From NCBI RefSeq assembly GCF_003334255.1, contig NZ_QOWU01000010.1: a stretch of DNA of 64,000 nucleotides; one strand, 5' to 3'. Positions 1,657-49,369 of the stretch are shown piece after piece. The DNA is from Escherichia coli. GTDB taxonomy: Bacteria > Pseudomonadota > Gammaproteobacteria > Enterobacterales > Enterobacteriaceae. The translations under genes and the position numbers were made by a program. Below the pieces are notes generated by a model. The model did not search any database and was not told the origin of the DNA. It saw only the letters and a program-made list of their open reading frames with translations. Position 1 is the first letter of the stretch. Each line of letters starts with the position of its first letter.

Positions 1657-1657
<1 letters not shown>

Positions 1658-2755: not shown

Positions 2756-2840
2756 AGGTTCTCCAGAATAGCGACGCAAACAGGCAAATCTAATTTTAGG
2801 GGCGTTATTATAAGGCTTTTATAACCGATCGCTACTTTCT

Positions 2841-3056
2841 TTATTGGACATAGTGCCAGACGGACTTCGGTACCTGGCCGAGGTCAAACAAACGCCCGCC
2901 AGAAACCAGCTCTGCGCGACGGTGATCGGCAGCACGATACATATTGATCAGTTCCTGATCGTCCGTCAGGGTGTAATTAAGATGGTCGTAGAGTTTTTCC
3001 AGACTTTCGAGTGAACTGATTTTGCGAAATTTTAATAAGTAGTCCTGAACAGTCAT
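2841..3056 (-). CDS. cnu: Cnu (YdgT), Hha-family nucleoid-associated protein (71 aa)
   Basis: 71-aa [53 protein letters not shown]... matches Cnu/YdgT. Confidence 0.9.
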
Positions 3057-31641: not shown

Positions 31642-33033
<1,392 letters not shown>

Positions 33034-33038: not shown

Positions 33039-33060
33039 ACGGCCTCTGCTGAGGCCGTCA
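33039..33060. terminator. Bidirectional hairpin between convergent pntB and tqsA
   Basis: Inverted repeat GACGGCCTC-TGCT-GAGGCCGTC (9-bp stem) between the two stop codons. Confidence 0.5.
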
Positions 33061-33963
33061 CTCTTTATTGAGATCGCTTAACAGAACGGCGATGCTTTGA
33101 CCTCCCGCTGTTTGTTCAAGCGCAATTTTGACAATAATTGTCAACGGCACGGAAAGCAGCATACCCACCGGTCCTAACAACCATCCCCAAAAAATCAACG
33201 ACAAAAATACCACCAATGTGGAAAGCCCCAGCCCACGCCCCATGATACGCGGCTCCAGAATATTGCCGAAGACCAGATTAATCAGCAGATATCCCGCCAG
33301 CACCAGCAACGCTTCGTAGAAGCCATTAAACACCAGTACCTGAGCGATAGGGGGGATTGCCGCGAGGACTGAACCAATATTCGGGATGTAATTAAGCGCA
33401 AAGGCCAGCAATCCCCAGACAAAAGCGAAGCGAACATCGAGTGCGGCGAGCATCGCCCAGGCGACCAGGCCGGTGATGATGCTGATGGCTGTTTTCAGCA
33501 CCAGATAATGAGAAACACTGTCAATCGCACGTTGAATCGCCGCCATCCCTTCAACCGGACGCGCCATCATTTGCTGAAATTTTCCGGGCAATTGTGGCAC
33601 TTCGAGCAGCATAAACAGCACCGTCAGCAGCAATAAAAATATTGATGACATGGCATTAGATAACTGCGTCAATAAGTTGGTGAGCAACGTCATCGCCGCG
33701 TTCGGATCAATATAATGCGCCAGCTGGTCAACTGAGACGTCAATCCCTACGCGTTGCAACAACGGTTCAAGCGCTTGCAGCGGCGTCATAATAGAGTTGC
33801 GATATTGCGGTAACGTCCGCGTCAACTCGTTGAGCGCGGAACCCAGATAAGCTAATAGCAACACCATCGCCATCACGATGATGGTCATCAAAATCGACAC
33901 CGCCAGTACACGCGGCACACGCCAGCGGACCATGTGTTGCACCAGCGGGTTAAGAATAACAGC
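33058..33963 (-). pseudogene. tqsA: tqsA (ydgG) 3' fragment: AI-2 exporter lacking its first 45 codons because of island insertion
   Basis: Minus-strand coding sequence ...[27 protein letters not shown]... to stop matches TqsA residues 44-344; sequence 5' of 33964 is unrelated and enters an integrase gene. Confidence 0.88.
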
Positions 33964-33964
33964 A
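33956..33964. repeat. Left att core copy (ATAACAGCA) at island/tqsA junction (attL)
   Basis: Identical 9-mer at both junctions; flanking sequence on the outer sides corresponds to contiguous tqsA codons. Confidence 0.7.
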
Positions 33965-34091
33965 TTTTATCATTTAGTGTTTTTTGCTGTTTCATAATGT
34001 TTCAGGCTGTGCATTATGTTTTTGATTATCAACAGATTTGTGATTTTCCTTGTTCCAGCTTGTTTCACGTTGTAGCCCTTTGTGCAACGAT

Positions 34092-34115
34092 CGGTGTAGT
34101 CACTGGTGTAGTCAC
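34092..34115 (+). repeat. Tandem 10-bp repeat GGTGTAGTCA x2 (candidate integrase arm-type site) upstream of int
   Basis: CGGTGTAGTCACTGGTGTAGTCAC 25 bp upstream of the int start; a near-identical copy lies at 48725-48747 near the other island end. Confidence 0.5.
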
Positions 34116-34139
34116 TTTTTCGTAAAGAGGGGGTAAAAC

Positions 34140-35369
34140 GTGAGCAGAGCAATGAACAAACTGAGCGATACCTTGCTAAGGAAACTTCATGGTAAGCCAG
34201 CGGAGAAAAACACGTTTTATAGTGATGGCGGAAACCTGAGCGTGAAATATTTAACATCAGGGAAATTGACCTGGTATTTCACATACAGGGCCGGAACGGG
34301 AAGGGAGACACGACCCGAACGCATTAAGCTGGGAAGTTATCCTGATCTGAGCCTGAAAGCAGCCAGGGAAAAAGCCGCACAGTGTCGCACATGGCTGGCT
34401 GAGGGGAAAAATCCACGTCATGAGATGAATTACACCGTACAGGAAGCGTTAAAGCCCGTAACGGTTGGCGATGCGCTCACCTACTGGCTTGAGTATTACG
34501 TAAAGGAAAACCGCGTGGATTATATCGCCCTGAAAAGGCGACTTAATAATCACGTAATACAGCAGATTGGTGCTATGCCGCTGGATAAATGCGAGCTACG
34601 GCACTGGCTGGCCTGTTTTGACCAGGTGGCAAAGCGAACGCCTGTTACTGCCGGATTCGTGCTACAGGCGTGCAAACAGGCGCTTAAGTTCTGCCGTAGG
34701 CGGCGCTATGCAATCAGCAACGTTCTGGACGATCTGAACGTGGCGGACGTTGGGAAAAAACCGGATATAAGCGAACGTGTCTTAAGTAACAAAGAACTTG
34801 GCGAATTATTGCAGGCACTGGACAAAAAAATATTTTCCCCTTACTACGTCGCGTTAATCCGCCTCCTGATTGTCTTCGGAGCCAGGACGGTAGAACTGAG
34901 GCTATCGGAGATCGGGGAGTGGGATTTTACGGAAATGCTATGGACCGTTCCGAAGGAGCACAGCAAAACGAAGGTCGCAATATTCCGGCCCATACCGGAA
35001 GCGATCCTGCCGTTCGTCACGCAGCTGGTGGAGCAGAACAGGCACACGGGCTTATTGCTGGGGGAAGTGAAACAGGAGGCCAGCGTATCGCAGTATGGAA
35101 GATTAGCGCACAGGAGGCTTAATCATCCTCACTGGTCACTGCATGACATCCGGCGCACCTTTACAACCATGCTGAACGATTTAGGCGTTGATCCGCATGT
35201 CGTGGAGCAGCTTACAGGTCATCAGATGCCAGGAATGCAGCGAGTTTATAATCATTCCCGTTATCTGGATGCTAAACGCAATGCGCTGGATATGTGGATG
35301 GAGCGGTTAGGGATACTGGCGGGAACACATGAAAACGTAACCACGCTACCAGTAGCCAGAAGAAAATAA
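34140..35369 (+). CDS. int: Tyrosine integrase, P4-type (DUF4102 arm-binding N-terminal domain plus catalytic domain ending ...HDIRRTF...Y), 409 aa from GTG
   Basis: N-terminal KLSDTLLRKLHGKPAEKNTFYSDGGNLSVKYLTSGKLTWYF resembles the P4 integrase family N-terminus; C-terminal HxxRRT and downstream Tyr; GTG at 34140 has a GAGGGGG RBS (alternative ATG at 34152). Confidence 0.88.
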   Translation: MSRAMNKLSDTLLRKLHGKPAEKNTFYSDGGNLSVKYLTSGKLTWYFTYRAGTGRETRPERIKLGSYPDLSLKAAREKAAQCRTWLAEGKNPRHEMNYTVQEALKPVTVGDALTYWLEYYVKENRVDYIALKRRLNNHVIQQIGAMPLDKCELRHWLACFDQVAKRTPVTAGFVLQACKQALKFCRRRRYAISNVLDDLNVADVGKKPDISERVLSNKELGELLQALDKKIFSPYYVALIRLLIVFGARTVELRLSEIGEWDFTEMLWTVPKEHSKTKVAIFRPIPEAILPFVTQLVEQNRHTGLLLGEVKQEASVSQYGRLAHRRLNHPHWSLHDIRRTFTTMLNDLGVDPHVVEQLTGHQMPGMQRVYNHSRYLDAKRNALDMWMERLGILAGTHENVTTLPVARRK

Positions 35370-35743
35370 TTTTTTTCGTGTTTTTTCAGTATGCGCATAC
35401 TGGATATGCGAACAGATACAACATGCAACAATGAGCAACAATGCGGAACAACTACGAACAAGAGACGAAAAAGTGTACGGATTTATAAGTAGCTGATTTT
35501 TAATGTGTTACTGGTTTTTTATACACTAGCGAATCACTCTTTAAATAGCGAGAAAAAAGGCATGAAACAATATTTTATGCCTTTGTATTAACATGAATTT
35601 AAATGATTTTATCCTGATTATTCCTGTTTCTGTAAACCATACGACCTCAACATTTGCCAACTCTGAATCATCCTGACACAATCAGACACATCCCAACGCA
35701 ATAGAACACGAAATAACTCTTTAAGAAACGAAAGGGGGCAATA

Positions 35744-35932
35744 GTGTTAAGCACTGATCGGTTTATACGTGAAAAAGAATGCGAAAAGCTAACAGGCCTT
35801 AGCCGCTCATGCCGCTACCGCCTGGAAAAGGCCGGACAATTCCCATCACGTCGTAAACTTGGCGGTCGTTCCGTTGGCTGGTCTTTATCCGAGGTTCTGG
35901 CCTGGAAGGATAGCTGCAAGGCAGTTCATTAA
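35744..35932 (+). CDS. alpA: AlpA-family transcriptional regulator / excisionase-like HTH protein (62 aa, GTG start)
   Basis: LSTDRFIREKECEKLTGLSRSCRYRLEKAGQFPSRRKLGGRSVGWSLSEVLAWKDS fits the AlpA/Vis-type small HTH family; RBS AGGGGG 5 nt upstream. Confidence 0.75.
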   Translation: MLSTDRFIREKECEKLTGLSRSCRYRLEKAGQFPSRRKLGGRSVGWSLSEVLAWKDSCKAVH

Positions 35933-36432
35933 TCACGCTGGCGGCACACAGCCGCCACACATCAATCATCTGAACACAGAGCTATAACCATGAAGATTGA
36001 ATATACGCCAGAACGTGGGCGGGGATTCGTTCGCCCTGGTGAGACTGGAAAACCACAAAATTGGGGTTTTTCAGGCATAAAAAAAGCGGCCCCGAAATGG
36101 AGCCGCCTTTCTGAACAGATAACACGCTGCGCCGTTTGTGTGTGTGATCCCAAACATAAGCACGGGGATGATAGCCGCTATCAGGCTGGTGGGCAATGCA
36201 ATCAGTCTGGTTCAGTTCGTTGCCATACCTGCAATGAGCGCTTTTCCCTGTACTCTTTAAGGAATTGCTCAAGGGCAAAAGCACATGGCGCGAATCTTTC
36301 TGATTCATGCTCTATCTTTCTGCGCCGTCTTTTCCGTGCCGGTGATAATGTTTTGGTCAATTCTTTATCGGTCATTGTGTTGTCCTGCATAGCAATGCGC
36401 CGTAATACCTCACACCACGGCGCTGATAGTGA

Positions 36433-36738
36433 TTATTCTGATTCTTTGGCCTTGCGGCGCTGTAGTTCTTCACGAGCGATGGCGATAAGTTGCCCGAGTT
36501 CTTCCGTAGCTTTAATACCAATTTTTTCCACTTGCGCCAATGCATCGAGAGAAGAAATCAGAGGATTTTCACTGCTTCCTTCTGCCTGGCGGCGGGCGAT
36601 CTCCCCGCGCATGGCGGTTACTATGAATCCGGCGTTGCTTTCGCCGTCCAGTTTTACGGATTCCATGCCATCAAAAGCATCATGTGGGATACGAATTGAA
36701 ATCTGTTTTGATTTGTCGTTGATAGTGTTTTTTGCCAT
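36433..36738 (-). CDS. Hypothetical protein (101 aa), leftward-transcribed; candidate island regulator
   Basis: Start at Met 14 of the ORF, with AGGAGA RBS 7 nt upstream; the only clearly leftward gene in the island, divergent from the replication operon; function unknown. Confidence 0.5.
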   Translation of the reverse strand: MAKNTINDKSKQISIRIPHDAFDGMESVKLDGESNAGFIVTAMRGEIARRQAEGSSENPLISSLDALAQVEKIGIKATEELGQLIAIAREELQRRKAKESE

Positions 36739-36925
36739 GTGCATTCTCCTAAACAAAAGATGTGATTCAGTATACACAAAAAAGAATCACAAAAAACACT
36801 TGACCTGTGATTCAGTTGAATTTAATTTAAATCACACCTCAGTAAGAGGATGTAAACGACAACGCCCCGAACTGTTTGCGGCAGTAGCGGGGCGTCTAAC
36901 CAAACCGTTAACAGGAGTAACGATT

Positions 36926-37123
36926 ATGGCTGGAACACAGCATACCCCACGTCTGGCGCACACACAAACTGCCTTTGTGTGGCGTTTTCTGGCACTAAGT
37001 GCCGGAGAATCTCAAATCATCCACGTAACCGCCTGGACGGAACGCGAAGCGCGTAGCCGTTGCCCGTCCGGTTGTGTTGCTGTATTCGCCGCCCGTATTC
37101 GTCAGGGGGTGTGCCATGCCTGA
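36926..37123 (+). CDS. Small protein (65 aa), first gene of rightward operon; possibly Icd-like (function uncertain)
   Basis: ATG at 36926 preceded by AGGAG RBS (ACAGGAGTAACGATTATG); C-terminal part of the spurious long ORF 35990-37123; stop overlaps next gene start. Confidence 0.5.
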   Translation: MAGTQHTPRLAHTQTAFVWRFLALSAGESQIIHVTAWTEREARSRCPSGCVAVFAARIRQGVCHA

Positions 37124-37436
37124 CATGACCAATTACCAGTACCTGATTAATCCGCATTTTAACTGTGAGCATGATATTGCTAAAAAGGTTTATTCCGCTG
37201 CGGATGGGGCTACTGACAATATATCAATGGCTGTTTCGTCAATTGGTAGCCTGATGTGGTATGCGTCAGAAAATAAGGAATATGACGAAAAGGCCATGCG
37301 CATTGATATGGGTAATATTGGTTTGTTACTGGCAATGCTTGGACATTTTGATATTTCGTTACGGTGCACCATTGAAAATGCCACAGATGCATTAAATGCT
37401 ATAAAGAAAGCGAATACTGATTCAAATCGGGGATAA
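37116..37436 (+). CDS. Hypothetical protein (106 aa)
   Basis: ATG at 37116 overlapping the upstream stop (translational coupling); no recognisable motif. Confidence 0.5.
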   Translation: MPDMTNYQYLINPHFNCEHDIAKKVYSAADGATDNISMAVSSIGSLMWYASENKEYDEKAMRIDMGNIGLLLAMLGHFDISLRCTIENATDALNAIKKANTDSNRG

Positions 37437-37442
37437 ATAATC

Positions 37443-37742
37443 ATGAGAACGTATTTATCTGGCTTTACTGCCAGCGGTTATGCACACCCCAAAATTATCC
37501 CCGGCGCTATTTATCTGGATAAGAACGGTAACAGAGTAACGGTAAAAGAACTGATGTTTGACCGTGTGTATTTTATTCGTGATGGCTATTCATTTCATAG
37601 TTCGCTGAACGTGGAGATCTTTATTAGCAGATTCCGGCGGGAAATCCCGCTTTCCAGAAATAACCATGTGTCATGTATGGATGTTGATAAAAAACTACAG
37701 GAACTGAAAAACATGATTGCCGCGTGGAGAGAGCAGAAATGA
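37443..37742 (+). CDS. Hypothetical protein (99 aa)
   Basis: ORF directly upstream of and overlapping the primase gene start; no recognisable motif. Confidence 0.5.
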   Translation: MRTYLSGFTASGYAHPKIIPGAIYLDKNGNRVTVKELMFDRVYFIRDGYSFHSSLNVEIFISRFRREIPLSRNNHVSCMDVDKKLQELKNMIAAWREQK

Positions 37743-39556
37743 AAAAAGCGCCAAATTTAAAACACCAGCCGCGTGACAAAATGACGGAAGTCATCATTTT
37801 TGCGGGTAGTGATGCGTGGGCACATGCGAAGCAGTGGCAGGAACAGGACGGGCGACTGGCTGGCGATAACGTGCCACCTGTCTGGCTTGGAGAGCAACAA
37901 CTTGCCGAACTGGACAACCTGCAAATCGTACCGGACGGACGCTATCGCGTGCGTCTCTACCAGGCGGGGTTATTGCGTCCGGGGCTTGTTAATACCATCG
38001 GGCAGAAACTGGCAGCGGCAGGTGTCAGGGATGCTGATTATTACCCTGAAGGAATGCACAGCCAGAAACGGGAGAACTGGCGCGAATATCTGGAACGTGA
38101 GCGGGGAGAGCTGGCGGAAAAGAAAAAGGTAGTTGAACTGCCTGTAAAGAAAAAAGAGCGGGTAAAAGACGATAACGCTTCATCACTGGCGCTTAACCAG
38201 ATGGGAGCAAGTCAACGCGGCGAAGTTCTCCTGGCACATTATGGCGGTGAACTGGCGATTCATGCTGACTCTGACACTGTTCACTATTACAACGGCGTTG
38301 TATGGGAGCCAGTACAGGATAAAGAATTACAGCGAGCTATGGCGCAGATTTTCATTGATGCGGAGATCAGCTATTCGCAGAACGCCATTAAATCGGCGGT
38401 CGATACCATGAAGTTAAGTTTGCCTGTAATGGGGAATACAGCCCGTAACCTGATTGGATTCAGTAACGGTGTTTTTGATACCCGGACAGGCGATTTTCGG
38501 GAGCATAACAAAAACGACTGGTTGTTAATTGCCAGTGAATTACCTTTCAGCCCACCAGCAGAGGGGGAAACGCTGGCAACACATGCGCCGAATTTCTGGA
38601 AGTGGTTACGCCGTTCGGTGGCTGAGAATGACCGCAAGGCGGATCGCGTACTGGCTGCATTATTCATGGTGCTGGCGAACCGGTACGACTGGCAGTTATT
38701 CATTGAGGTAACAGGTCCAGGGGGAAGTGGTAAAAGCGTGATGGCGGAGATTTGCACCATGCTGGCGGGTAAGGCCAACACGGTATCGGCAAGCATGAAG
38801 GCGCTGGAAGATGCCAGGGAACGCGCGTTAGTGGTTGGCTTTTCGCTGATTATCATGCCGGATATGACCCGTTACGCTGGTGATGGCGCAGGAATTAAGG
38901 CCATTACAGGCGGTGACAAGGTGGCAATCGACCCGAAGCATAAAGCCCCCTACTCAACACGCATTCAGGCGGTAGTGTTGGCGGTGAACAATAACGCCAT
39001 GTCATTCAGTGACCGCAGCGGGGGGATTTCACGTCGTCGGGTGATATTCAATTTTTCGGAGGTTGTACCGGAAAACGAACGCGACCCCATGCTGGCAGAA
39101 AAAATAGAAGGAGAGCTGGCGGTTGTGATTCGCCACCTGCTTACTCGTTTTTCTGACCAGGACGCAGCTAAACGCCTGCTGTATGAGCAGCAGAAATCAG
39201 AAGAAGCTCTGGTGATAAAACGCGAGGGCGATTCGCTGGTGGACTTCTGCGGCTATCTCATGTCGTCGGTAATGTGTGATGGTCTGTTAGTGGGTAATGC
39301 CGAAATTATTCCGTTCAGTCCGCGCAGGTATCTTTATCACGCCTATCTGGCATATATGAGGGCACACGGATTCGGTAAACCTGTAACACTGACGCGCTTC
39401 GGTAAAGATATGCCGGGGGCAATGGCGGAATATGGCAGGGAGTATATGAAACGGAAAACGAAGCACGGTTTGCGTTCAAACGTGACACTGACGGAGGAAT
39501 CAGAAGACTGGATGCCATCATGTGTATCGGTCACTAATGACGATAGCAAAAATTAA
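37739..39556 (+). CDS. Primase / replication initiator with P4/D5-type NTPase domain (605 aa)
   Basis: Walker A VTGPGGSGKS and downstream Walker B-like hydrophobic-acidic stretch in the C-terminal half (P4-family primase C-terminal domain architecture); GGAGAG RBS before ATG 37739; followed by an iteron array. Confidence 0.75.
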   Translation: MKKAPNLKHQPRDKMTEVIIFAGSDAWAHAKQWQEQDGRLAGDNVPPVWLGEQQLAELDNLQIVPDGRYRVRLYQAGLLRPGLVNTIGQKLAAAGVRDADYYPEGMHSQKRENWREYLERERGELAEKKKVVELPVKKKERVKDDNASSLALNQMGASQRGEVLLAHYGGELAIHADSDTVHYYNGVVWEPVQDKELQRAMAQIFIDAEISYSQNAIKSAVDTMKLSLPVMGNTARNLIGFSNGVFDTRTGDFREHNKNDWLLIASELPFSPPAEGETLATHAPNFWKWLRRSVAENDRKADRVLAALFMVLANRYDWQLFIEVTGPGGSGKSVMAEICTMLAGKANTVSASMKALEDARERALVVGFSLIIMPDMTRYAGDGAGIKAITGGDKVAIDPKHKAPYSTRIQAVVLAVNNNAMSFSDRSGGISRRRVIFNFSEVVPENERDPMLAEKIEGELAVVIRHLLTRFSDQDAAKRLLYEQQKSEEALVIKREGDSLVDFCGYLMSSVMCDGLLVGNAEIIPFSPRRYLYHAYLAYMRAHGFGKPVTLTRFGKDMPGAMAEYGREYMKRKTKHGLRSNVTLTEESEDWMPSCVSVTNDDSKN

Positions 39557-39569
39557 ACTTATGGAATAA

Positions 39570-39792
39570 CTGTTCACCACTGTTCACCCTGTCATAAATA
39601 TCTTTTGTATCAGTATGTTATAGGGTGAACAGTTATTTATGAACTGTTCACCAAACTATTCACTGTTCACCTTTTTGATTGTTTATTGAGCTTCAAGGGT
39701 GAACAGTGGTGAATAGTTGGTGAATAGTTTTTGTGAAACTGTTCACCCCTTAACATTATGAATTAAAAGATAAAATATCAAAAGGTGAACAG
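39570..39792. repeat. Iteron array (at least 8 copies of CTGTTCACC / GGTGAACAG in both orientations): candidate island replication origin
   Basis: Copies at 39570, 39580, 39624(inv), 39644, 39663, 39698(inv), 39739, 39784(inv) plus GGTGAATAG variants at 39708 and 39718, in AT-rich DNA just after the primase gene. Confidence 0.65.
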
Positions 39793-39843
39793 GTGAAGGG
39801 TTAAAACGCAAAAATTTTAATTTACTGCTGTGAGATAAAGCCT

Positions 39844-40089
39844 ATGACAGCGAAGCACACAAAAAAATCACAATCGCACGCCCTTGATTTGACGGAACAC
39901 TGGTTAAGGGTGTCGATAAAAATCATCGACCGCAACGCCGGGGAAGGATATGCGAAAGCACATCCCGAACTGATTAGCTCATTCATGACAACGGCAGCTG
40001 CAAACTTTGCCACGCTGACAGAACGGGAGATTGCCGAAGCGGAACAGGTGACAACCATCAACGTTAAAACCGGAGAGCAGACAGCATGA
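39844..40089 (+). CDS. Hypothetical protein (81 aa)
   Basis: ORF immediately upstream of and overlapping the ssb start (ATGA overlap); weak RBS. Confidence 0.4.
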   Translation: MTAKHTKKSQSHALDLTEHWLRVSIKIIDRNAGEGYAKAHPELISSFMTTAAANFATLTEREIAEAEQVTTINVKTGEQTA

Positions 40090-40496
40090 CAGCACAGATA
40101 GCAGCTTACGGGCGGCTGGTGGACGACCCGCAGGTAAAACAGACCAGTAAGGGCACACCGATGACGCTGGCGCGTATGGCGGTATCGTTGCCATGTAGTC
40201 AGGCGCAGGATGGGCAGGCGACGTTATGGCTATCGGTCATCGCATTTGGTAAGCAGGCCGACTTCCTGGCTAAACATCAAAAAGGCGACGTTGCCAGCGT
40301 ATCCGGCACGATGCAGGTCAGCCAGTGGACCGGACAGAACGGGGAAACGCGGCAGGGTTATCAGGTTATTGCAGACAGCGTAATCAGTGCCCGTGCGGCA
40401 CGTCCTGGCGGGAACAGACGCAAAACCACAGGCACACAGGGTAATCAGCCACCAGCGGGAGGCGATGACCCTTACGGTGACGGTATTCCGTTCTGA
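40086..40496 (+). CDS. ssb: Single-stranded DNA-binding protein (136 aa)
   Basis: OB-fold-like N-terminal region, Gly/Pro/Gln-rich linker and acidic C-terminal tail ...DDPYGDGIPF, the hallmark SSB protein-interaction tail. Confidence 0.75.
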   Translation: MTAQIAAYGRLVDDPQVKQTSKGTPMTLARMAVSLPCSQAQDGQATLWLSVIAFGKQADFLAKHQKGDVASVSGTMQVSQWTGQNGETRQGYQVIADSVISARAARPGGNRRKTTGTQGNQPPAGGDDPYGDGIPF

Positions 40497-40506
40497 GGGG
40501 GTGGCG

Positions 40507-40779
40507 ATGGTACATGACCGCATAGCGGAAGAACTCGAGGCGAAAGGCTTTTACCGGAGGGCGGCGGCGCGATGGGGTGAAGTCATGCTGCTGGTGGAGA
40601 CAGACAAGGAACGGCATCAGGTTACGATGCGACGGCTGGAATGTTCCAGGAAGGCACAGAAGCCACCGGAGCCGCCGGATAACTTCGGAGACCTGAGAAA
40701 GGCAGTAGATCGCACTTATGCTGAAATGGGTATAGATGGTGTAAGCGATGAAATATGGCGTAATTACCCAGACAGCTAA
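40507..40779 (+). CDS. PerC-family-like small transcriptional activator (90 aa)
   Basis: MVHDRIAEELEAKGFYRRAAARWGEVM... resembles the conserved PerC motif (LEAxGxxRRAAxRW) as I remember it; GAGGGGG RBS. Confidence 0.5.
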   Translation: MVHDRIAEELEAKGFYRRAAARWGEVMLLVETDKERHQVTMRRLECSRKAQKPPEPPDNFGDLRKAVDRTYAEMGIDGVSDEIWRNYPDS

Positions 40780-40784
40780 TCAAC

Positions 40785-40808
40785 AGCCGGAGAAATCCGG
40801 CTTTTTTT
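40785..40808 (+). terminator. Intrinsic terminator
   Basis: AGCCGGAGAAATCCGGCT followed by TTTTTTT. Confidence 0.65.
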
Positions 40809-40903
40809 GCACCAGTTGAAACGGTATGGCGCATTACCGGGTTTTCGTCACGGTCAGGCATAGTTACTATCTGAAACAAACAGACACAACAGAGGAAAAA
40901 ACA

Positions 40904-41128
40904 ATGCCGATGAAATTTGATGAGATATTAAAACAGCGTGATAAATACCATGCTGACAACATGGAGACGATGAGCATCAATGATTACCGCGCATTCCTGG
41001 AGACGGGCGCACTGATTGAAAAGGATCAGCATGGTTTTGTGAGATGTGCTCTGTCCGGTGAAATGCTGGCGGTAAATCCTGAACAGATAGATGCATTGAT
41101 AGAATTTCTGAAAGGGATCAGGGACTGA
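40904..41128 (+). CDS. Hypothetical protein (74 aa)
   Basis: Start at internal Met with GAGGAAAAAACA-ATG RBS; followed by a terminator almost identical to the one at 40785. Confidence 0.45.
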   Translation: MPMKFDEILKQRDKYHADNMETMSINDYRAFLETGALIEKDQHGFVRCALSGEMLAVNPEQIDALIEFLKGIRD

Positions 41129-41138
41129 GCACGCATAC

Positions 41139-41160
41139 AGCCGGAGCAATCCGGCTTTTT
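41139..41160 (+). terminator. Intrinsic terminator (near-duplicate of 40785-40808)
   Basis: AGCCGGAGCAATCCGGCT followed by TTTTT. Confidence 0.65.
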
Positions 41161-41420
41161 GTCATTTTTTGTAAATTATTTGTTCGTGGTTGTTCCACGT
41201 TGTTCACTGACAGGATCGGCATATTTTACCCGAACTGAATCATGAGTATTCTCGCCCGTGGTGCCAGGACGCTGGGGCCACTTTCCCGCCTGTTAATGTG
41301 CTCGCCAATATTCATTACCAGGCGGGAAAACGATCGGTGCGATTGCTGATTTCCTTATGAAAAACGGTTGAGTTTTTGCCGCGTCCTGGAGTTCCTTACT
41401 TAACCCCAGGACTTTTTTTT

Positions 41421-42578
41421 ATGCCGAGAATAATCGAATTACGCCAGCAGAAAACCGCCATTAAAAATCAGATGCGCGACATGCTGGAGAACGCGGAAAA
41501 AGAAAACCGCAGCCTTAACGATGCAGAGGGCGCAAAATTTGACGAATTACGCGCTAAAGCTGAATCCCTCGATAAAGACATTTCCCGCCTTGAAGCCATT
41601 GCAGACGAAGAGCGCAGCAAGCCAGGTAAAAGCAGCCAGACCACTGACCCGGCAGAACTCCGCAACTACATCCTGACAGGTGAAACCCGCGCATTAAGTA
41701 CAGGCGTTCCCGCTGATGGTGGTTATACCGTTATCCCCGAACTGAACACCGAAATCATGCGAATGCTGACGGATGAATCCACCATGCGCCGCATCTGTAC
41801 CGTGAAGAAAATCAGCAGCAACGAGTTTAAGCAGCTTGTTTCCGCTGGCGGTGCGACCGTTAACCACGGTGAAGAGGGTAAGACACGCGAACAGACCAGC
41901 ACCCCGCAGATTAACGAGGTGAGCATTAAGCTGTATCCGGTCTATGCGTACCCGCGCACCACACAGGAAATCGTGGATTTTTCCGATGTGGACATCCTTT
42001 CATGGCTGACGGGTGAGATTGGCGACACCTTCACGGAAACCGAAGAAAGCGATCTGGTTGTGGGCGACGGTGACAAAAAAGCAAAAGGTTTTTTATCCGT
42101 ACCCCGTGCAGAGAAGAACGACAAAGAGCGTGATTTTGGTACGTTGCAGGTAATTAAACCTTCCGAATCTCTGGCGTGGACATCTGCGGACCCGCTGATC
42201 GACCTGAAATTTGCATTACGTAAAAAATACCGCAAAAACGCGGTCTGGGTGGTTAACTCCACGACGGCGGCAAAACTTCAGAAGGTGAAGAACGCGAACG
42301 GTGATTACATCTGGCGCGACCGTTTACAGGCGGGTGATCCTGATACGTTGCTGGGCCTTCCGGTCGAATATCTGGAGTTTATGCCTGATAACGTTATTGC
42401 CCTGGGTGACTTCAAACGCGGTTACTACATTGTTGATCACGAAACAGGTGTTCGCACCAGACCGGACAACCTCACAGAGCCGGGCTTCATCAAAATTTTC
42501 ACGCAGAAATATTTAGGCGGTGGCGTGGTGGATTCGAACGCGATCAAGATTCTGGAACTGCCACAGGACGACGATTAA
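41421..42578 (+). CDS. Major capsid protein, HK97 fold, with N-terminal coiled-coil scaffolding (delta) domain (385 aa from ATG 41421)
   Basis: N-terminal coiled-coil region (IELRQQKTAIKNQMRDMLENAEKENRSLNDAEGAKFDELRAKAESLDKDISRLEAIADEE) followed by a region typical of HK97-family capsid proteins; ORF track start 41376 is a TTG extension; strong terminator follows. Confidence 0.85.
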   Translation: MPRIIELRQQKTAIKNQMRDMLENAEKENRSLNDAEGAKFDELRAKAESLDKDISRLEAIADEERSKPGKSSQTTDPAELRNYILTGETRALSTGVPADGGYTVIPELNTEIMRMLTDESTMRRICTVKKISSNEFKQLVSAGGATVNHGEEGKTREQTSTPQINEVSIKLYPVYAYPRTTQEIVDFSDVDILSWLTGEIGDTFTETEESDLVVGDGDKKAKGFLSVPRAEKNDKERDFGTLQVIKPSESLAWTSADPLIDLKFALRKKYRKNAVWVVNSTTAAKLQKVKNANGDYIWRDRLQAGDPDTLLGLPVEYLEFMPDNVIALGDFKRGYYIVDHETGVRTRPDNLTEPGFIKIFTQKYLGGGVVDSNAIKILELPQDDD

Positions 42579-42590
42579 CAGCATACAGAA

Positions 42591-42620
42591 GGGGCTTAAA
42601 AGCCCCTTTAGTGTTTTATG
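42591..42620 (+). terminator. Intrinsic terminator after major capsid gene
   Basis: GGGGCTT-AA-AAGCCCC hairpin followed by a T-rich tract. Confidence 0.65.
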
Positions 42621-42632
42621 GGTGAAAAAATT

Positions 42633-43190
42633 ATGAAGAGTATGGAAATCCGGTCATCGGAAATCACCACCAGCGCCAGCAACACGCTTACAGGCTACGT
42701 TGTTCGCTGGGATAAGCTTTCAGAGCTGCTATGGGGGGAGTTTTACGAAAAATTCCAGCGGGGAGCGTTTACTGAATGGCTTGCGGCGGGTAATGACGTT
42801 CGCGGCCTGTATGAGCATGACCACAGCATGTTGCTGGGGCGTACCCGTTCCGGCACGCTGAAACTGGAAGAGGACGAAACAGGGTTACGCTTTGAACTGA
42901 CCCCACCGGATACCAGTACAGGGCGCGACGTTATCGAACTGGTTAAGCGTGGGGACATCTCGGGGATGAGCTTTGGCTTTCGCTCCCGTAAGGATGTATG
43001 GGATACCACAACAGATCCATGCGTGCGCACCGTGCTGGTGGCGGAACTGTACGAAATTACCGTTACATCGGTACCGGCTTACCCCGATTCCGGCGTGGAG
43101 CTGGCCCGCCGTTCCCTGTATGAGCAGCACCCCGAAAAAATGCCGCGTGCGGATAATCGCCGCTGGTGGGTGGATTTAGCGGGGGTGTGA
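42633..43190 (+). CDS. Prohead maturation protease, HK97 family (S78-like), about 186 aa
   Basis: Sequence typical of HK97-type prohead proteases (GYVVRWDKLS..., YEHDHSMLLGRTRSGTL, GDISGMSFGF); start ambiguous among ATG 42618/42633/42642. Confidence 0.8.
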   Translation: MKSMEIRSSEITTSASNTLTGYVVRWDKLSELLWGEFYEKFQRGAFTEWLAAGNDVRGLYEHDHSMLLGRTRSGTLKLEEDETGLRFELTPPDTSTGRDVIELVKRGDISGMSFGFRSRKDVWDTTTDPCVRTVLVAELYEITVTSVPAYPDSGVELARRSLYEQHPEKMPRADNRRWWVDLAGV

Positions 43191-43191
43191 T

Positions 43192-44403
43192 ATGTGGCTT
43201 TTCAGAAGAAAAAAAGAGCAGCGCAGCATGACGCTTGATGAATTTATGGCGCTGGCTGGCACATCGAACACGGGGGCGGGTGAGTACGTATCATCGGGGA
43301 CAGCGGAATCACTGCCCGCCGTCATGAACGCCGTGACGGTCATCTCTGAGGCGGTGGCTACCATGCCGTGTTACCTGTACCTGGTACGCAATGAGAAGGG
43401 GAAGGAGGCCCGCGAGTGGCTTGATTCTCATCCGGTCGATCACATCCTCAACGAGCGCCCGAACGCGTGGCAGACTCCCTACCAGTTTAAGCGAATGATG
43501 ATCCGCCACTGCCTGTTAAACGGTAATGCTTATGCGGTGATTCAGTGGGGGCGTGATGGTTTTCCGGTGGCTTTACATCCTTACCCGCCGCAGTCGGTGA
43601 ACGTGGAGCAGACAGGCGAACACAACTGGCGCTACTGCATCACTGACGCCTACACCGGAAACACCCGCAACTATTTACCGTGGGAGGTTCTCCACCTTCG
43701 TTACTCCACGGATGACGGTTTTATGGGGCGCTCACCTGTAACCATCTGCCGCGAATCGCTGGGGCTTGGGCTGGCCCAACAACGCCACGGCGCGAGCGTG
43801 ATGCGTGATGGCATGATGGCGGCAGGGGTTATCACGTCAGGCGAATGGCTGGACGGCGTGAAGGGCAAACAGGCATTAGCCGCACTGGAACGCTACAAAG
43901 GGGCCAGAAACGCCGGAAAAACGCCCATCCTTGAAGGGGGTATGAGCTATCAGCAGCTGGGCATGAGTAATCAGGATGCTGAATGGCTGGCCTCCCGTCG
44001 CTTCACCATTGAAGACATCGCCCGAATGTTCAACGTCTCGCCGATTTTTCTGCAGGAATACAGCAACAGCACCTACAGCAATTTCAGCGAGGCAAGCCGC
44101 GCATTTCTCACCATGACAATGCGCCCGTGGCTGGCGAACTTTGAGCAGCAGATAAAAAACGCCCTGCTGGTGGCCTCGCCTGTACCTGGTATCCGGTATC
44201 AGGTGGAGTTTGACAGCGCGGACCTGTTACGGGCCACACCTGGCGAACGCTTTGCCACCTATGAACGCGGCATCAAATCCGGCGTTATGTGCCCGAACGA
44301 AGCCCGCGAACGTGAAGGGCTGTCCCCGCGTGATGGTGGTGATGAGTTCAGCCAGGCATGGAAACAGGAAGTAAAAATCAGCGAGGGAGAAAAACCGGAA
44401 TGA
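43192..44403 (+). CDS. Portal protein, HK97 family (403 aa)
   Basis: Size, position and conserved portal-like core (…LLNGNAYAVIQWGRDG…, …ILEGGMSYQQLGMSNQDAEWL…); immediately follows the protease with 1-nt spacing. Confidence 0.8.
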   Translation: MWLFRRKKEQRSMTLDEFMALAGTSNTGAGEYVSSGTAESLPAVMNAVTVISEAVATMPCYLYLVRNEKGKEAREWLDSHPVDHILNERPNAWQTPYQFKRMMIRHCLLNGNAYAVIQWGRDGFPVALHPYPPQSVNVEQTGEHNWRYCITDAYTGNTRNYLPWEVLHLRYSTDDGFMGRSPVTICRESLGLGLAQQRHGASVMRDGMMAAGVITSGEWLDGVKGKQALAALERYKGARNAGKTPILEGGMSYQQLGMSNQDAEWLASRRFTIEDIARMFNVSPIFLQEYSNSTYSNFSEASRAFLTMTMRPWLANFEQQIKNALLVASPVPGIRYQVEFDSADLLRATPGERFATYERGIKSGVMCPNEAREREGLSPRDGGDEFSQAWKQEVKISEGEKPE

Positions 44404-44738
44404 ACATAGGGCGACTGCGTGACAGGGTAACGATTCAGACCCTGAAACAGACCAGGGATATAACCGGCGAAATACTCGAAACGTGGGAGGACGGTCACAC
44501 ACTCTGGGCAAGCGTGAACATGATCAGCAGCAAGGAGGCCATTTCATCGGGTGCAGAGCTGGCGATTGGTACCGTAAGGATCTGGATACGGTACCGGAAG
44601 GACATCAATGCCACCAGCCGGATAAAGGTCAGTACGGGGCCGCTGGCGGGGCGTGTACTGAATATCATCGGGCAGCCGCTGCCGGATGCCGCCAGGACAC
44701 GCCTTGAAATTCTTTGTCGTGAGGGCGCGGAAAAATGA
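44400..44738 (+). CDS. Head closure / head-tail adaptor protein (112 aa)
   Basis: MNIGRLRDRVTIQTLKQTRD... resembles the head-tail joining family; ATGA overlap with portal stop; GAGGGAGA RBS. Confidence 0.7.
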   Translation: MNIGRLRDRVTIQTLKQTRDITGEILETWEDGHTLWASVNMISSKEAISSGAELAIGTVRIWIRYRKDINATSRIKVSTGPLAGRVLNIIGQPLPDAARTRLEILCREGAEK

Positions 44739-45031
44739 CAGAAGAACTTATCACCCTGGAAGAAGTGAAACTCCATTGCCGCATCGATGGCGACGAGGAA
44801 GACCAGTTAATCAGCGGATACATCGCCGCATCGCTTGAGGCGTGCCAGATACACATAGGCAGGCGCTTTGATGACGGGCTGGAGTTCACGCCAGCCATAA
44901 AGATTGGCTGCATGATGTTTATCGCTCACCTGTATGAAAATCGCCAGATTGTCGCGGATAACGCAAAAACACGCGTACCCATGACGATTGGTGCACTCTG
45001 GACGGCTTACCGTGATGTGGGGGTGTACTGA
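44735..45031 (+). CDS. gp6-like head-tail connector protein (98 aa)
   Basis: MTEELITLEEVKLHCRIDGDEEDQLISGYIAASLEACQIHIG... resembles the gp6-like connector family N-terminus. Confidence 0.7.
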   Translation: MTEELITLEEVKLHCRIDGDEEDQLISGYIAASLEACQIHIGRRFDDGLEFTPAIKIGCMMFIAHLYENRQIVADNAKTRVPMTIGALWTAYRDVGVY

Positions 45032-45471
45032 TGCCGTGGCAACCATTAAGACGATGCACAGAACCAGGCTGTAACAGGCGCGTGAAGTCCGGCAAGTGTG
45101 AGGAGCACAGGCGGGCGGCATGGCGTGCAGAGGATGCCAGACGAGGACACCGCCGCGCGCGTGGGTACTCCAGACAGTGGGACAAATACCGCGCCATGTA
45201 TCTGAGTAAAAACCCGTTATGCGTGCGATGCCTTGAGAAGGGGATATATACGCCCGCCGTGGTGGTGGATCACATTATCCCGATTAATGGCGGTGATGAT
45301 GTTCTCTTCTGGCCCGAATGGAACCATCAGCCATTGTGCCAGGCGTGCCATAACCAGAAAACGAAATGGCTTGATCCGGCAACAAAAAGCAAGCGTGCCG
45401 CAGGTGGATTTCGTGAAGAGGAAGAACGGGCCGCTAACCGCAATAACTGGATGTATGACGCTGATGAATGA
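45031..45471 (+). CDS. HNH endonuclease (packaging-associated), 146 aa
   Basis: Cys pairs plus VVDHIIPINGGDD...NHQPLCQACHNQK (HNH motif); located immediately upstream of TerS as in HK97-like cos packaging modules. Confidence 0.85.
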   Translation: MPWQPLRRCTEPGCNRRVKSGKCEEHRRAAWRAEDARRGHRRARGYSRQWDKYRAMYLSKNPLCVRCLEKGIYTPAVVVDHIIPINGGDDVLFWPEWNHQPLCQACHNQKTKWLDPATKSKRAAGGFREEEERAANRNNWMYDADE

Positions 45472-45759
45472 GCGGGAACAAAACCGCCTTATCCGTGGAC
45501 TTATAAGGCAGCGTGACGCATGGAAGACACAGGAAACAGGGCATAAAGATAAAGCGTCAGGACGCGCAGAACGCATCACAGCGAAGCGATTAACCGACCG
45601 TGACCGCGAGGTTATGGAATGTTTCCGCAATCGCTGATGAGGCTGTATGACGGGGTGGGGGGCGTTTTCAGGACAAACCCGACCCCGCCGGGCACCGACC
45701 GCCTCCTCAAATTTTTATGCACGGGAATTTTTTGAAAAATAATCTGACGAAAAATAAGC

Positions 45760-46116
45760 ATGGCAAGACCACCGAAAGCCCCCGCCTACCTGGATGACAT
45801 CGCCGTGAAGCAGTGGCGGGAAAAATCGCGGCAGCTTGCGGAACGGGGAGACCTGACCCCCGCCGACTGGAGCAATCTGGAACTGTATTGTGTCAACTAC
45901 TCCATTTACCGGAAAGCCGTCGCAGACCTTGCGGCGCGCGGGTTCAGCATTGTTAACAGTCAGGGCGGCGAGAGCAGAAACCCCGCATTAAGCGCGAAAT
46001 CAGACGCTGAAAGGGTGATGATAAAAATGGCCTCCTTGCTCGGTTTTGACCCGATAAGCCGCCGTAAAAACCCACCGGAAACAGAAGAAGAGGACGAGCT
46101 TGACCGCCTGGAATAA
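45760..46116 (+). CDS. Terminase small subunit, P27 family (118 aa)
   Basis: Resembles P27-type TerS (AVKQWREKSRQLAERGDLTPADWSNLELYCVNYSIYRKA); overlaps TerL start. Confidence 0.8.
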   Translation: MARPPKAPAYLDDIAVKQWREKSRQLAERGDLTPADWSNLELYCVNYSIYRKAVADLAARGFSIVNSQGGESRNPALSAKSDAERVMIKMASLLGFDPISRRKNPPETEEEDELDRLE

Positions 46117-47761
46117 GTACGCAGAAGACGTAAAAACGGGCAAAATTCAGGCCTGTAAACGGTTAAAACAGGCCGTTAAACGGTACTTTTCGGACCTTAA
46201 AAGCCCCCTTTACACGTTCGATCGTGAGGTTGTGGATCGGTTTATTGCCTTTTCCAGGGTGTGCCCGCACGTAAAAGGGCCGATGCGTGGCAGACCCATT
46301 GAGCTGGAGCCGTGGCAGCAGTTCGCCTTTGCGTGCATCCTCGGCTTTAAGGTTAAGGCCACCGGACGGCGCAAATATACGAGCGCCTTTATCGAAGTGC
46401 CGCGCAAAAATGCTAAATCAACGACCGCCGCGATTCTGGCTAACTGGTTTCTGATTATGGAGAACGGTCAGCAGGATATTTACACCGCAGCGGTGAGCCG
46501 TGACCAGGCGAGGATCGTATTTGATGATGCGCGTCAGATGTGCATTTTATCCCGACCGTTACGCAGGCGGGTGAATATTCAGGCGCATAAGGTGATACAC
46601 CCGAAAACCAACAGCCTGTTAAAGCCGCTGGCAGCAAAAGCGGCAACTATCGAGGGCACAAACCCCAGTCTTTCTATCGTGGACGAATACCACCTACACC
46701 CCGACAACGGCGTATATTCTGCGCTTGAACTGGGGATGGGGGCACGTCCCGAAGGGCTGTTATTTGCCATTACCACATCGGGAAGTAACGTCGTTTCAGC
46801 CTGTAAGCAGCATTATGATTATTGCTGCCAGATCCTGGACGGCGAAGAGGTTAACGAATCGCTTTTTGTGCTGATTTACGAACTGGACGACGAAAACGAG
46901 GTTGATGATCCGGAGATGTGGATAAAGGCGAACCCTAATATCGATGTTTCCGTGGATCGTGAAAAACTGGCCTCAACCATTCAGAAAGCGCGGGGTATTC
47001 CGTCGCAATGGGTGGAGATGATGACAAAGCGATTTAATATCTGGTGTCAGGGGACTACCCCGTGGATGGGTAATGGTGCATGGGCTGAGTGTGCCGGAAC
47101 GTTCACGGAGGAAGATTTACACGGTCAGGAGTGTTACGCGGGGCTGGACTTATCATCAACCAGCGATATTTCCAGCGTGTGCTATGCCTTTCCGGTCGGT
47201 AAAACCATTATGATGATTTCCCGTCATTATCTGCCGGAGTTCCAGCTACAGAACCCCGCCAATAAAAACCGCGCTGTCTATCGTCAGTGGGCTAAAGCAG
47301 GCTGGATACGCACAACGCCTGGCGACTGCATTGATTACGACCGGATCAGAGATGACATCATGCAGGACGCGGAGAAATTTAATATCAGGCTGGTGGGCTT
47401 TGATACGTGGAACGCCACGCATCTCAGAACGCAATTACAGGGGGCAGGTTTTGAGGTGGAGCCGTTCCCGCAAACCTACCTCAGATTCAGTCCGGCGGCG
47501 AAATCGTTCGAAGTTTTTGTTAACCGCAGGGTGATTGTGCATCGTGGCGATCCGGTGTTGTCCTGGTCGATGAGTAACGTCGTGATGCAGAGTGACGCGA
47601 ACGCCAATATCAAGCCGAACAAGAAAAAATCACCGAACAAGATAGACCCGAGCGTGGCGGCGCTGATGGCGTTTGGTACATTCCAGGCAGAGCATGAGGA
47701 TTTTGCTTTTGATATAAGCGACAGCCACCGCCAGAAACTGGAAGAATTTAGCGGGGTGTAA
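46100..47761 (+). CDS. Terminase large subunit (553 aa; apparent TTG start)
   Basis: ATPase and nuclease domains in typical TerL arrangement; no in-frame ATG/GTG near the 5' end, TTG at 46100 preceded by GAGGA. Confidence 0.85.
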   Translation: MTAWNKYAEDVKTGKIQACKRLKQAVKRYFSDLKSPLYTFDREVVDRFIAFSRVCPHVKGPMRGRPIELEPWQQFAFACILGFKVKATGRRKYTSAFIEVPRKNAKSTTAAILANWFLIMENGQQDIYTAAVSRDQARIVFDDARQMCILSRPLRRRVNIQAHKVIHPKTNSLLKPLAAKAATIEGTNPSLSIVDEYHLHPDNGVYSALELGMGARPEGLLFAITTSGSNVVSACKQHYDYCCQILDGEEVNESLFVLIYELDDENEVDDPEMWIKANPNIDVSVDREKLASTIQKARGIPSQWVEMMTKRFNIWCQGTTPWMGNGAWAECAGTFTEEDLHGQECYAGLDLSSTSDISSVCYAFPVGKTIMMISRHYLPEFQLQNPANKNRAVYRQWAKAGWIRTTPGDCIDYDRIRDDIMQDAEKFNIRLVGFDTWNATHLRTQLQGAGFEVEPFPQTYLRFSPAAKSFEVFVNRRVIVHRGDPVLSWSMSNVVMQSDANANIKPNKKKSPNKIDPSVAALMAFGTFQAEHEDFAFDISDSHRQKLEEFSGV

Positions 47762-47774
47762 TGAGGTCAGCAGC

Positions 47775-48056
47775 ATGACAGAAGCCGAAATAACGGGATT
47801 AATCCGCCGCGTTGCCGGAATCAGCCAGCAGGCTGACGAACAGGCCACGCAGCCGGACAGCGTGACAGCCGAAAACTATGCGCGTGTTGTTGCTGAGGTG
47901 ATGCGCCGTGATGGTATAGAACTTAATGGCGTGGATATGCGCAACATACGAACCAGAGTTCTTGAGTTGCTGGCCTACCGTCGCCGCGTGGAGATGTATC
48001 GGGAGAAGGAGAAAATAACGTACCACTGGAAGAAGCCGGAGCGGTTGCGGCGGTAA
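47775..48056 (+). CDS. Hypothetical protein (93 aa), last gene of island
   Basis: ATG 47775 with GAGG RBS 8 nt upstream; no recognisable motif. Confidence 0.5.
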   Translation: MTEAEITGLIRRVAGISQQADEQATQPDSVTAENYARVVAEVMRRDGIELNGVDMRNIRTRVLELLAYRRRVEMYREKEKITYHWKKPERLRR

Positions 48057-48349
48057 CTGGTTGATATTCCCGACGGACCAAAAATGGGTGGCTACATCCC
48101 TCGCTTCTGAGGACTGTTAACAAGCTGCCTGAAAGACAGTCACAAACTACGAAATTTTCGCAGTTTAATTAATGATCAGCTTAATCGCTAACCCGCTGAT
48201 ATTTTCGGAAACCTCAATTTGAGGAAGTCGGCGCGGTAACTCGCTGAACTTTAAGCAAAGTGCAAAATTGCGCTTGCTGAATAATCATTATGATTACGCA
48301 GATGATTAAGGAATGACCGAAGGCGGAAATTCGCCTGTGGTTAATGGGG

Positions 48350-48462
48350 GAGTTGCAGATCTGCAACTCGACCATGAAACTACGGAAACTACCCGTAGTT
48401 TGGGTAGTAAGAGTAACACCCAGATTTTGGGTCTTACTCGTGATACCCAAATTTGGGGTATC
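48350..48462. repeat. Cluster of perfect and near-perfect palindromes in the island right arm
   Basis: Perfect 20-bp palindrome GAGTTGCAGATCTGCAACTC (48350-48369); AAACTACGG/CCGTAGTTT stem (48376-48400); nested AGTAAGA...ACCCA...TGGGT...TCTTACT (48406-48439); GATACCCAAATTTGGGGTATC (48442-48462). Confidence 0.6.
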
Positions 48463-48724
48463 AGTGGCAACCATAACGACTTTCGTTACGGTTGATGCTT
48501 TTACCCCATTGGGGGAAAGGTATTACGATAATCATAACACCTACCGAACAGGTAAAGCCCACCAGCCTGATTAACGTTTAACCGGAAAAAAATTCCGGTA
48601 GGTGGGGATCCCCATATCGACATTAACGCCCCTCATGAATTGGTGCGCTTCCCCCTGGAAAGATGATCCGCCTGTATATTTCTTGTGTCTATTTGTTCCA
48701 CGTTGTTTCATACAGTGCACCGAA

Positions 48725-48747
48725 CGGTGTAGTCACTGGTGTAGTCA
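48725..48747 (+). repeat. Tandem 10-bp repeat GGTGTAGTCA x2 (second copy of candidate arm-type site)
   Basis: CGGTGTAGTCACTGGTGTAGTCA, same orientation as 34092-34115; preceded by TTGTTCCACGTTGTT, which recurs at 41190. Confidence 0.5.
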
Positions 48748-48821
48748 TTTTGCGATTTTTGGCACTTTTTGCGGTGAAAATTATTTAATTAAATCAACGT
48801 GTTATGTGAAATAAGTTATAT

Positions 48822-48830
48822 ATAACAGCA
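48822..48830. repeat. Right att core copy (ATAACAGCA) at island/tqsA junction (attR)
   Basis: Identical to 33956-33964; followed by contiguous tqsA 5' coding sequence. Confidence 0.7.
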
Positions 48831-48958
48831 ATAAATAATGCGAGAATAAACGGCACGATGATCTCGGCGGCAAAACGGATACCGCAGAGAATAATGACCA
48901 GCATTCCCAACATAATGACGATTTTTAGGCCATTGAGCGTGATGATCGGCTTTGCCAT
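48824..48958 (-). pseudogene. tqsA: tqsA (ydgG) 5' fragment: first 45 codons with native start and RBS, separated from the rest by the island
   Basis: Minus-strand ATG at 48958 encodes [45 protein letters not shown], which joins in frame to the fragment at 33058-33963 (shared AV codons) when the island is deleted. Confidence 0.88.
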
Positions 48959-49369
48959 GCTTGTCCCCGTTTTTTCTTCCTTTGCTAATAATAATGTCTT
49001 TTTCGCTCCGTCATCATAACGAAAATCAAACCGCTCAGGTAAAGAAGTGAAAATATTTTGAGTTAATTCTTAAGCTATGATACAAATCAGGCGTGTTCAA
49101 CTACCGAGGACAATTATCATCCGCGATGACGAGAAGCAACACTGCGGATAATTGTAATATTATGGACAATTTGTTCAGGACGTTATTTTCTACATTTACC
49201 CATCTTCGTACCTCATCCACTATCTTGCTCGTAGGTGAGCAGCACTGGCGCAACGCGCTTTAGTCCTTTCTTCTGCCAAAGCTTGCGCTATGCGCGGGGC
49301 TTGACCACTTTACTTTGGTTTCGCTGAATTAAGCGAAAATTAAAATAATTCTCTTGCAGGAGAAGGACA

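Follow-up and report, generated by a model that had tools for sequence, protein, structure and literature searches.

Phage satellites of the PICI type are normally triggered to excise by a helper phage, which acts through the regulator AlpA during the lytic cycle, and AlpA is needed for their induction (10.1101/2022.09.08.507074). One of the chromosomal genes that integrated elements are known to interrupt in Escherichia coli is tqsA. Bobay et al. (2013, PMC3603311) reported it among genes that are disrupted by prophage integration and are otherwise core, and Mageeney et al. (2020, PMC7192596) named it as a new candidate for regulated gene integrity, with quorum-sensing functions among the affected genes. 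An earlier study had mapped a CP-933C relative, the ED1a element, to the interval from ydgD to ydgG, the latter being the old name of tqsA (Flockhart et al., 2012, PMC3378721). CP-933C (OI-51) itself encodes RgdR, a regulator of type III secretion (LEE) (PMC3378721).

The product of the interrupted gene, a proposed exporter of the signal AI-2, has been described in structural detail. In the cryo-EM structure of TqsA, the five protomers of the pentamer make their major cytoplasmic contact through helix H1 (T7-F29), and H2 (A31-W57) lies horizontally, embedded in the membrane (PMC9475539). Native mass spectrometry revealed binding of AI-2 by TqsA and also by YdiK, which is one of three TqsA paralogues along with YhhT and PerM (PMC9475539). 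Transport by TqsA could not be demonstrated in vitro, and the authors of the structure termed AI-2 a 'probable substrate' and were open to other substrates (PMC9475539). Deletion of tqsA in K-12 is reported to raise intracellular AI-2, lsr expression, biofilm formation and motility (Herzberg 2006, as summarised in PMC9475539).

We examined a stretch of E. coli DNA of 64 kb (the window), in which tqsA lies on the minus strand and is cut in two by an island of 14,857 bp. The tqsA 3′ fragment is located shortly after the downstream end of the gene pntB (31645-33033, plus strand). The pieces of tqsA and the repeats that bound the island are as follows.

33058-33964, minus strand: tqsA 3′ fragment, codons A44-E344 plus the TGA stop (33058-33060), without a start codon of its own
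33956-33964, no strand: attL core, the left of the two 9-bp direct repeats ATAACAGCA; all six independent loci have this core
48822-48830, no strand: attR core, right copy of the same 9-bp direct repeat, identical in six independent loci
48822-48958, minus strand: tqsA 5′ fragment, beginning with M1, a 100% match to CDS positions 1-137
48794-48958, minus strand: 54-aa ORF that starts in the 5′ fragment, with M1-I46 native and YNLFHITR plus a stop derived from island DNA
48959-49130, minus strand: native tqsA upstream region (promoter and 5′ UTR), unchanged and 100% identical to K-12 derivatives

Translated on the minus strand, 33058-34140 gives two in-frame stops followed by 301 residues, the C-terminal part of TqsA, and the 3′ fragment matches the rejoined CDS at 100% from position 129 to 1035. 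The native part of the 5′ stub ends in ...FIAVI before the island-encoded YNLFHITR; the island base that follows the repeat recreates the Ile codon by chance (ATA for ATT), such that 46 native residues are kept. As the two fragments overlap by the direct repeat ATAACAGCA, the crossover must have occurred somewhere in codons 43-46. A preliminary description of this DNA had the gene split by the island after codon 45. The split itself is correct and its coordinates were nearly exact, needing small adjustments of the fragment limits to 33058-33964 (3′) and 48822-48958 (5′), but the crossover cannot be assigned strictly to codon 45. The two fragments cover positions 1-48 (5′) and 52-344 (3′) of the NCBIfam profile NF008930 and are 14.9 kb apart, and the window as it stands therefore does not carry this family member as a single uninterrupted ORF.

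To reconstruct the empty site, the island and one copy of the repeat were deleted, which joins 33665-33964 to 48831-49130 in a sequence of 600 nt. This reconstruction is 100% identical, and ungapped, to K-12 derivatives (DH1, MG1655). The insertion is thus exact, and the native promoter and 5′ region were left untouched; the 5′ piece retains both its promoter region and its start, as the preliminary description had proposed. The rejoined CDS of 1035 nt encodes 344 amino acids that are 100% identical to the TqsA of PDB 7NB6, and across positions 1-344 of the profile NF008930 (AI-2E family transporter) it scores 672.6 bits, where the cutoff is 318.

Integrative elements usually restore the gene that they enter, and this outcome was rejected here, given two in-frame stops and no fused ORF. 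The stops, TGA TAA at 33967-33972 in the minus-strand reading, are located immediately upstream of the junction, and hence no island-encoded N-terminus can be fused to the 3′ piece. The description of the gene as split and not rebuilt is borne out by this arrangement.

These data are most readily explained, in our judgement with high probability, by a capsid-forming PICI that would have integrated at the 9-bp core, in tqsA codons 43-46 and in the middle of H2, by site-specific recombination catalysed by its tyrosine integrase. The attP side of the island brings no replacement for the 5′ end of tqsA, which would leave two non-functional pieces: a promoter-proximal stub of 54 amino acids and a 3′ fragment that encodes residues 44-344 and has neither promoter nor start. 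With the island in place the host would be a tqsA null, and the wild-type gene would be expected to return on precise excision mediated by Int and AlpA. With the break in mid-H2, any product started internally would be without H1 and would keep little or nothing of H2. Judged from the structure, TqsA function is almost certainly lost while the island is integrated.

The assignment of the island is based on matches to PHROGs and on the PGAP annotation of its closest relatives. Its principal features are listed below.

33965-48821, plus strand: island classed by its gene content as a capsid-forming PICI (phage satellite), 14,857 bp between the cores
34093-34114, plus strand: tandem pair of GGTGTAGTCA on the attL side, upstream of int (copies at 34093 and 34105, 12 nt apart)
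34140-35369, plus strand: tyrosine integrase, 409 aa, intact (PHROG 1, E = 6e-72), equal in length to the PGAP integrases of related islands
35744-35932, plus strand: AlpA-like excisionase/transcriptional regulator, 62 aa (PHROG 2790, E = 2e-17)
37724-39556, plus strand: primase-type replication protein, 610 aa (PHROG 864, E = 1e-193)
40086-40496, plus strand: SSB (PHROGs match)
40507-40779, plus strand: PerC-family regulator (PHROGs match)
41376-47761, plus strand: head and packaging module with intact frames for major capsid, prohead protease, portal, head closure, adaptor, HNH, TerS and TerL
48726-48747, plus strand: tandem pair of GGTGTAGTCA on the attR side (copies at 48726 and 48738, 12 nt apart)

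Capsid-forming PICIs are expected to span 10-15 kb, and the island, at 14,857 bp, falls within this range. It carries int at one end, is flanked by att repeats, and has an AlpA-type regulator by int, a replication module and its own set of genes from capsid to terminase. No PHROG tail or lysis family was detected among the 20 island ORFs scanned, and none is annotated in related islands. On this gene content the island is identified as a capsid-forming PICI.

Several other parts of the island deserve mention. A 99-aa DUF4222 ORF (37443-37742, plus strand) has the size reported for RgdR, and the island that hosts it is related to the one that encodes RgdR. A 377-aa ORF occupies 35990-37123 (plus strand), and its residues 313-377 match Icd-like families of cell-division inhibitors or repressors. 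At the same place the closest genome (locus L002) has separate genes for 247 and 65 amino acids, which reflects either a fusion or an indel in this regulatory region. The rightmost stretch of the island (48057-48821) consists of about 760 bp without a convincing ORF and holds the right-hand arm repeats; for this region the annotation of the relatives gives nothing or, in some, one short hypothetical ORF.

The sequence GGTGTAGTCA occurs only four times in the 64 kb, where 0.12 occurrences are expected by chance, and all four copies are at the two ends of the island. All related loci have conserved it at the two ends of their islands, in tandem at the left and in one or two copies at the right. 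The pairs reside within an imperfect direct repeat of 76 nt (34043-34118 and 48676-48751). Their placement suggests that they are probably arm-type binding sites for the integrase. A separate exact repeat of 15 nt, TTGTTCCACGTTGTT, is present upstream of the capsid operon (41190-41204) and near the right end (48693-48707), with a diverged copy upstream of int (34060-34074); it is perhaps a promoter element, or a binding site for a regulator, common to these places.

Searches for the same sites elsewhere were negative. A 26-nt query for the attP junction of the excised form had no matches in IMG/VR, and the same attL had none in the GTDB representatives (one genome per species). A looser pattern for the left end had a single match, on a 1.5-kb contig of an archaeal MAG, which was rejected as an unrelated AT-rich chance match. 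The att sites are not named in the main text of Fillol-Salom 2018 (PMC6092414).

The islands closest to that of the window, in strains G6/7, G1/2 and G8, are 99.8% identical to it over 97% of its length. Five related loci (L001, L002, L004, L005 and L006) have the breakpoint and core exactly as in the window, making six loci with the window itself. These five carry different islands of 11.7-15.6 kb, some with different replication modules, and their host tqsA alleles show 0-22 nt differences, which are mostly synonymous and give 0-2 amino-acid changes. An identical breakpoint shared by different islands and alleles shows that one int-att module, common to these satellites, has repeatedly integrated in a site-specific manner. 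None of the five split genes has acquired stops or frameshifts, at a divergence too low to separate recent insertion from selection to keep the gene restorable.

One of the five loci (L005:19035-30728; NZ_CP061914.1, strain SMBL, from goat) holds an 11.7-kb classical PICI at the same tqsA breakpoint and with the same int-att module. This element has genes for major capsid, head decoration and connector proteins and is without portal or TerL. The presence of the module in a classical PICI indicates that it is exchanged between satellite types.

Relatives with about 86% identity are located at other loci in approximately 700 genomes, and their alignment starts exactly at window position 33964, which provides an independent mark of the island boundary. 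A further locus (L003:17960-29140; NZ_CP023541.1, E. coli O104:H21 CFSAN002236; also 94-3024) has an integrase inside caiT that is 99.5% identical in its 5′ region to the integrases at the tqsA site. Here caiT is split into pieces of 1155 nt and 399 nt at ATAAAAACA; of the 9 positions of this core, 7 agree with the tqsA core ATAACAGCA. This insertion is found in one strain only (two records) among 5,426 genomes and, from its sequence, looks like a rare secondary-site event that broke another transporter gene.

The collection used for counting comprised 5,426 complete E. coli genomes. An uninterrupted tqsA site is present in 5,166 of 5,423 complete genomes, and the junction between tqsA′ and the integrase in 247 (the junction region having at least 95% identity in about 244). 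Approximately 245 of the 5,426 genomes (about 4.5%) carry a tqsA-site integrase at the identical breakpoint, and many O26, O111 and O121 Shiga-toxin-producing (STEC) strains are among the island-bearing genomes. The same core and breakpoint in six loci and about 245 genomes led us to reject an assembly artefact or a random IS-like insertion.

Among genomes without an intact tqsA site, roughly ten are also without the tqsA′-integrase junction. In H56 (NZ_AP027697.1), IS1 lies between the two halves of the empty-site query, and in H95 (NZ_CP014583.1) only the 5′ half of the query is matched.

The preliminary description had singled out a functional full-length TqsA, or a second intact tqsA elsewhere in the genome, as evidence that would contradict it. 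Computationally, neither was found, and a second copy is absent from the window and from the island-bearing complete genomes. A tblastn search of the 64 kb with TqsA recovered no tqsA-like sequence besides the two fragments, and the empty-site query never matched more than two places in any complete E. coli genome, leaving no third, intact place. The complete genomes yield 256 extra places for this query against 257 genomes without an intact site, a near equality which indicates that island-bearing genomes carry the two halves only. A second copy was rejected on the combined strength of these searches, and by extension from the complete genomes of its close relatives the source strain too is expected to have none.

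What the loss of TqsA means for the cell is less certain than the loss itself. By analogy with the published K-12 deletion, it is plausible that carriage of the island alters AI-2 and biofilm phenotypes, as had been anticipated. A competing view, which we hold to be possible but on balance doubtful, accepts that the gene is broken and supposes that its loss is phenotypically silent, with AI-2 leaving the cell by other routes or with TqsA having a different substrate. The reservations of the structure's authors about transport and substrate, cited above, favour such silence (PMC9475539), as does the existence of three paralogues, of which YdiK also binds AI-2; YdiK, YhhT and PerM might buffer the loss of TqsA. 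It is also favoured by the disruption of this otherwise core gene (PMC3603311) in about 4.5% of complete genomes, the successful O26, O111 and O121 STEC lineages included. Against it are the increases in intracellular AI-2, lsr expression, biofilm and motility that are reported for the K-12 deletion (Herzberg 2006, via PMC9475539).

The preliminary description had also made the phenotype conditional on excision. Formally this is sound, as precise excision would yield a wild-type gene at all six loci, and with its integrase, alpA and att sites intact the island is probably able to excise. A physiological on/off switch, in contrast, is unsupported, because excision of a PICI normally occurs in a cell that is about to lyse. 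We consider it quite unlikely that the satellite serves as such a switch, keeping tqsA off and bringing it back through a regulated excision that the cell survives, to the advantage of host or satellite, for example (and this is speculation) through changed AI-2 signalling that influences helper-phage decisions. The idea draws on the naming of tqsA as a candidate for regulated gene integrity, with a tight integrase clade that repeatedly disrupts the same domain (PMC7192596). Our data agree with that pattern, in that one integrase clade occupies the same intragenic position without restoring the gene in six loci and about 245 genomes. Different satellites and different host alleles share one breakpoint, none of the six loci shows decay of the split gene, and int, alpA and both cores are intact. 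Opposed to this reading is the normal fate of the excising cell, which dies when excision is induced through AlpA and a helper in the lytic cycle (10.1101/2022.09.08.507074). In addition, IMG/VR yielded neither attP nor a circular form, the lack of decay is weakly informative at the present divergence, and the rare off-target insertion in caiT fits a simple sequence-driven choice of site equally well.

A further reading would hold that the choice of tqsA is adaptive: silencing of the putative AI-2 exporter would shift the AI-2 balance of the host and alter the dynamics of helper-phage induction or infection, or biofilm and virulence, and occasional non-lethal excision would create a population-level switch. 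We regard this as very improbable. If it were true, the effect on biofilm or virulence would act together with the island's PerC-family regulator and its probable RgdR-family regulator.

Production of an active fragment of the transporter can be discounted most readily. The longest in-frame ORF of the 3′ fragment runs uninterrupted from 33942 to 33058 with a GTG start and encodes 294 amino acids. The first possible starts are this GTG (V51), which has no Shine-Dalgarno pairing, and the ATG of M54, for which pairing is weak (−2.8 kcal/mol). On the minus strand, the region upstream of the 3′ piece, between the junction (33965) and 34400, gave no sigma-70-like site. The earlier statement that this piece has no obvious start stands. 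The ATG of M69 (33888, minus strand) is preceded by GGCGGTG, and its anti-SD pairing (−6.1 kcal/mol) compares with −5.7 kcal/mol at the native tqsA start; some truncated polypeptide may therefore be made from M69, given read-through transcription out of the island. It is scarcely credible that a TqsA truncated to V51, M54 or M69 is made from such transcripts and is active in transport: the ORF is open, M69 has pairing as strong as that of the native start, and the C-terminal domain is intact with the proposed binding-site residues K200, N234, P237, N238 and E280, but no promoter-like site precedes the fragment on its strand, the island genes, int through terL, all run opposite to tqsA, on the plus strand, and the product would be without H1 (the main cytoplasmic pentamer contact) and most or all of H2 and, if started at M69, would also lack the conserved R61.

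Next to the junction, RefSeq/PGAP annotates in related genomes a hypothetical protein of 60 amino acids (33970-34152, minus strand) that reads toward the tqsA 3′ fragment. The ORF overlaps the start of the integrase gene and the arm repeats, and a longer version of 95 amino acids has no PHROG match. It is probably spurious, and it is the sole candidate for outward transcription into tqsA′.

A tqsA null that is caused by site-specific insertion of a capsid-forming PICI, and that excision could reverse, remains the reading we prefer, and its essentials were on record before this analysis. In every related genome that we opened, PGAP labels the 3′ piece 'AI-2 transporter TqsA, incomplete, missing N-terminus' and the 5′ piece 'pheromone autoinducer 2 transporter, missing C-terminus', so that both are already pseudogenes in the RefSeq/PGAP annotation. 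Disruption of tqsA by integrated elements and its effect are thus annotated and published, and the present finding is a correct rediscovery. Its conceptual novelty is nil, as the disruption, the candidacy for gene integrity and the pseudogene flags are all prior. The analysis contributes the 9-bp core, locates the break in codons 43-46 (mid-H2) and counts its occurrence among complete genomes.

The value of these additions is in annotation and in the interpretation of strains. About one in 20 complete E. coli genomes, including many O26, O111 and O121 STEC, would be a natural tqsA null through satellites at the tqsA site, and the status of tqsA is worth minding when AI-2, lsr or biofilm data are compared across strains. 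In addition, the question of AI-2 export by TqsA could be addressed in these naturally island-bearing strains.

Compared with the tqsA disruptions noted previously (PMC3603311, PMC7192596), the locus is alike in that the same gene is hit recurrently, without restoration and by a tight integrase clade; the main texts of those reports are without the tqsA breakpoint, the satellite classification and the structural reading. It also resembles the prophage gene switches at mlrA (with the Stx1 prophage), comK, sigK and hlb (PMC7192596), where intragenic insertion inactivates a gene that precise excision restores. Those systems differ in having proven regulated excision or restoration of the phenotype (PMC7192596), and the element in the window is, by analogy with other PICIs, a helper-dependent satellite.

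The ED1a element (EcCIED1a) is similar in its site, between ydgD and ydgG (PMC3378721), and in its RgdR-family regulator, which the window island probably also has in its 99-aa DUF4222 ORF. It differs in being drawn as a classical PICI beside EcCIEDL933 (10.1101/2022.09.08.507074), and its likeness to the window island is one of description. EcCIEDL933 (CP-933C, OI-51) itself is found between ycdF and phoQ (PMC3378721) and not in tqsA. The relatives of its integrase region are only about 86% identical in DNA to that of the window. In architecture the island corresponds closely to EcCIEDL933 and the capsid-forming PICI family (10.1101/2022.09.08.507074): it is about 15 kb long, with int at the left, alpA and then the replication module, and it encodes its own HK97-type capsid, protease, portal, connectors, HNH, TerS and TerL, with no tail or lysis genes.
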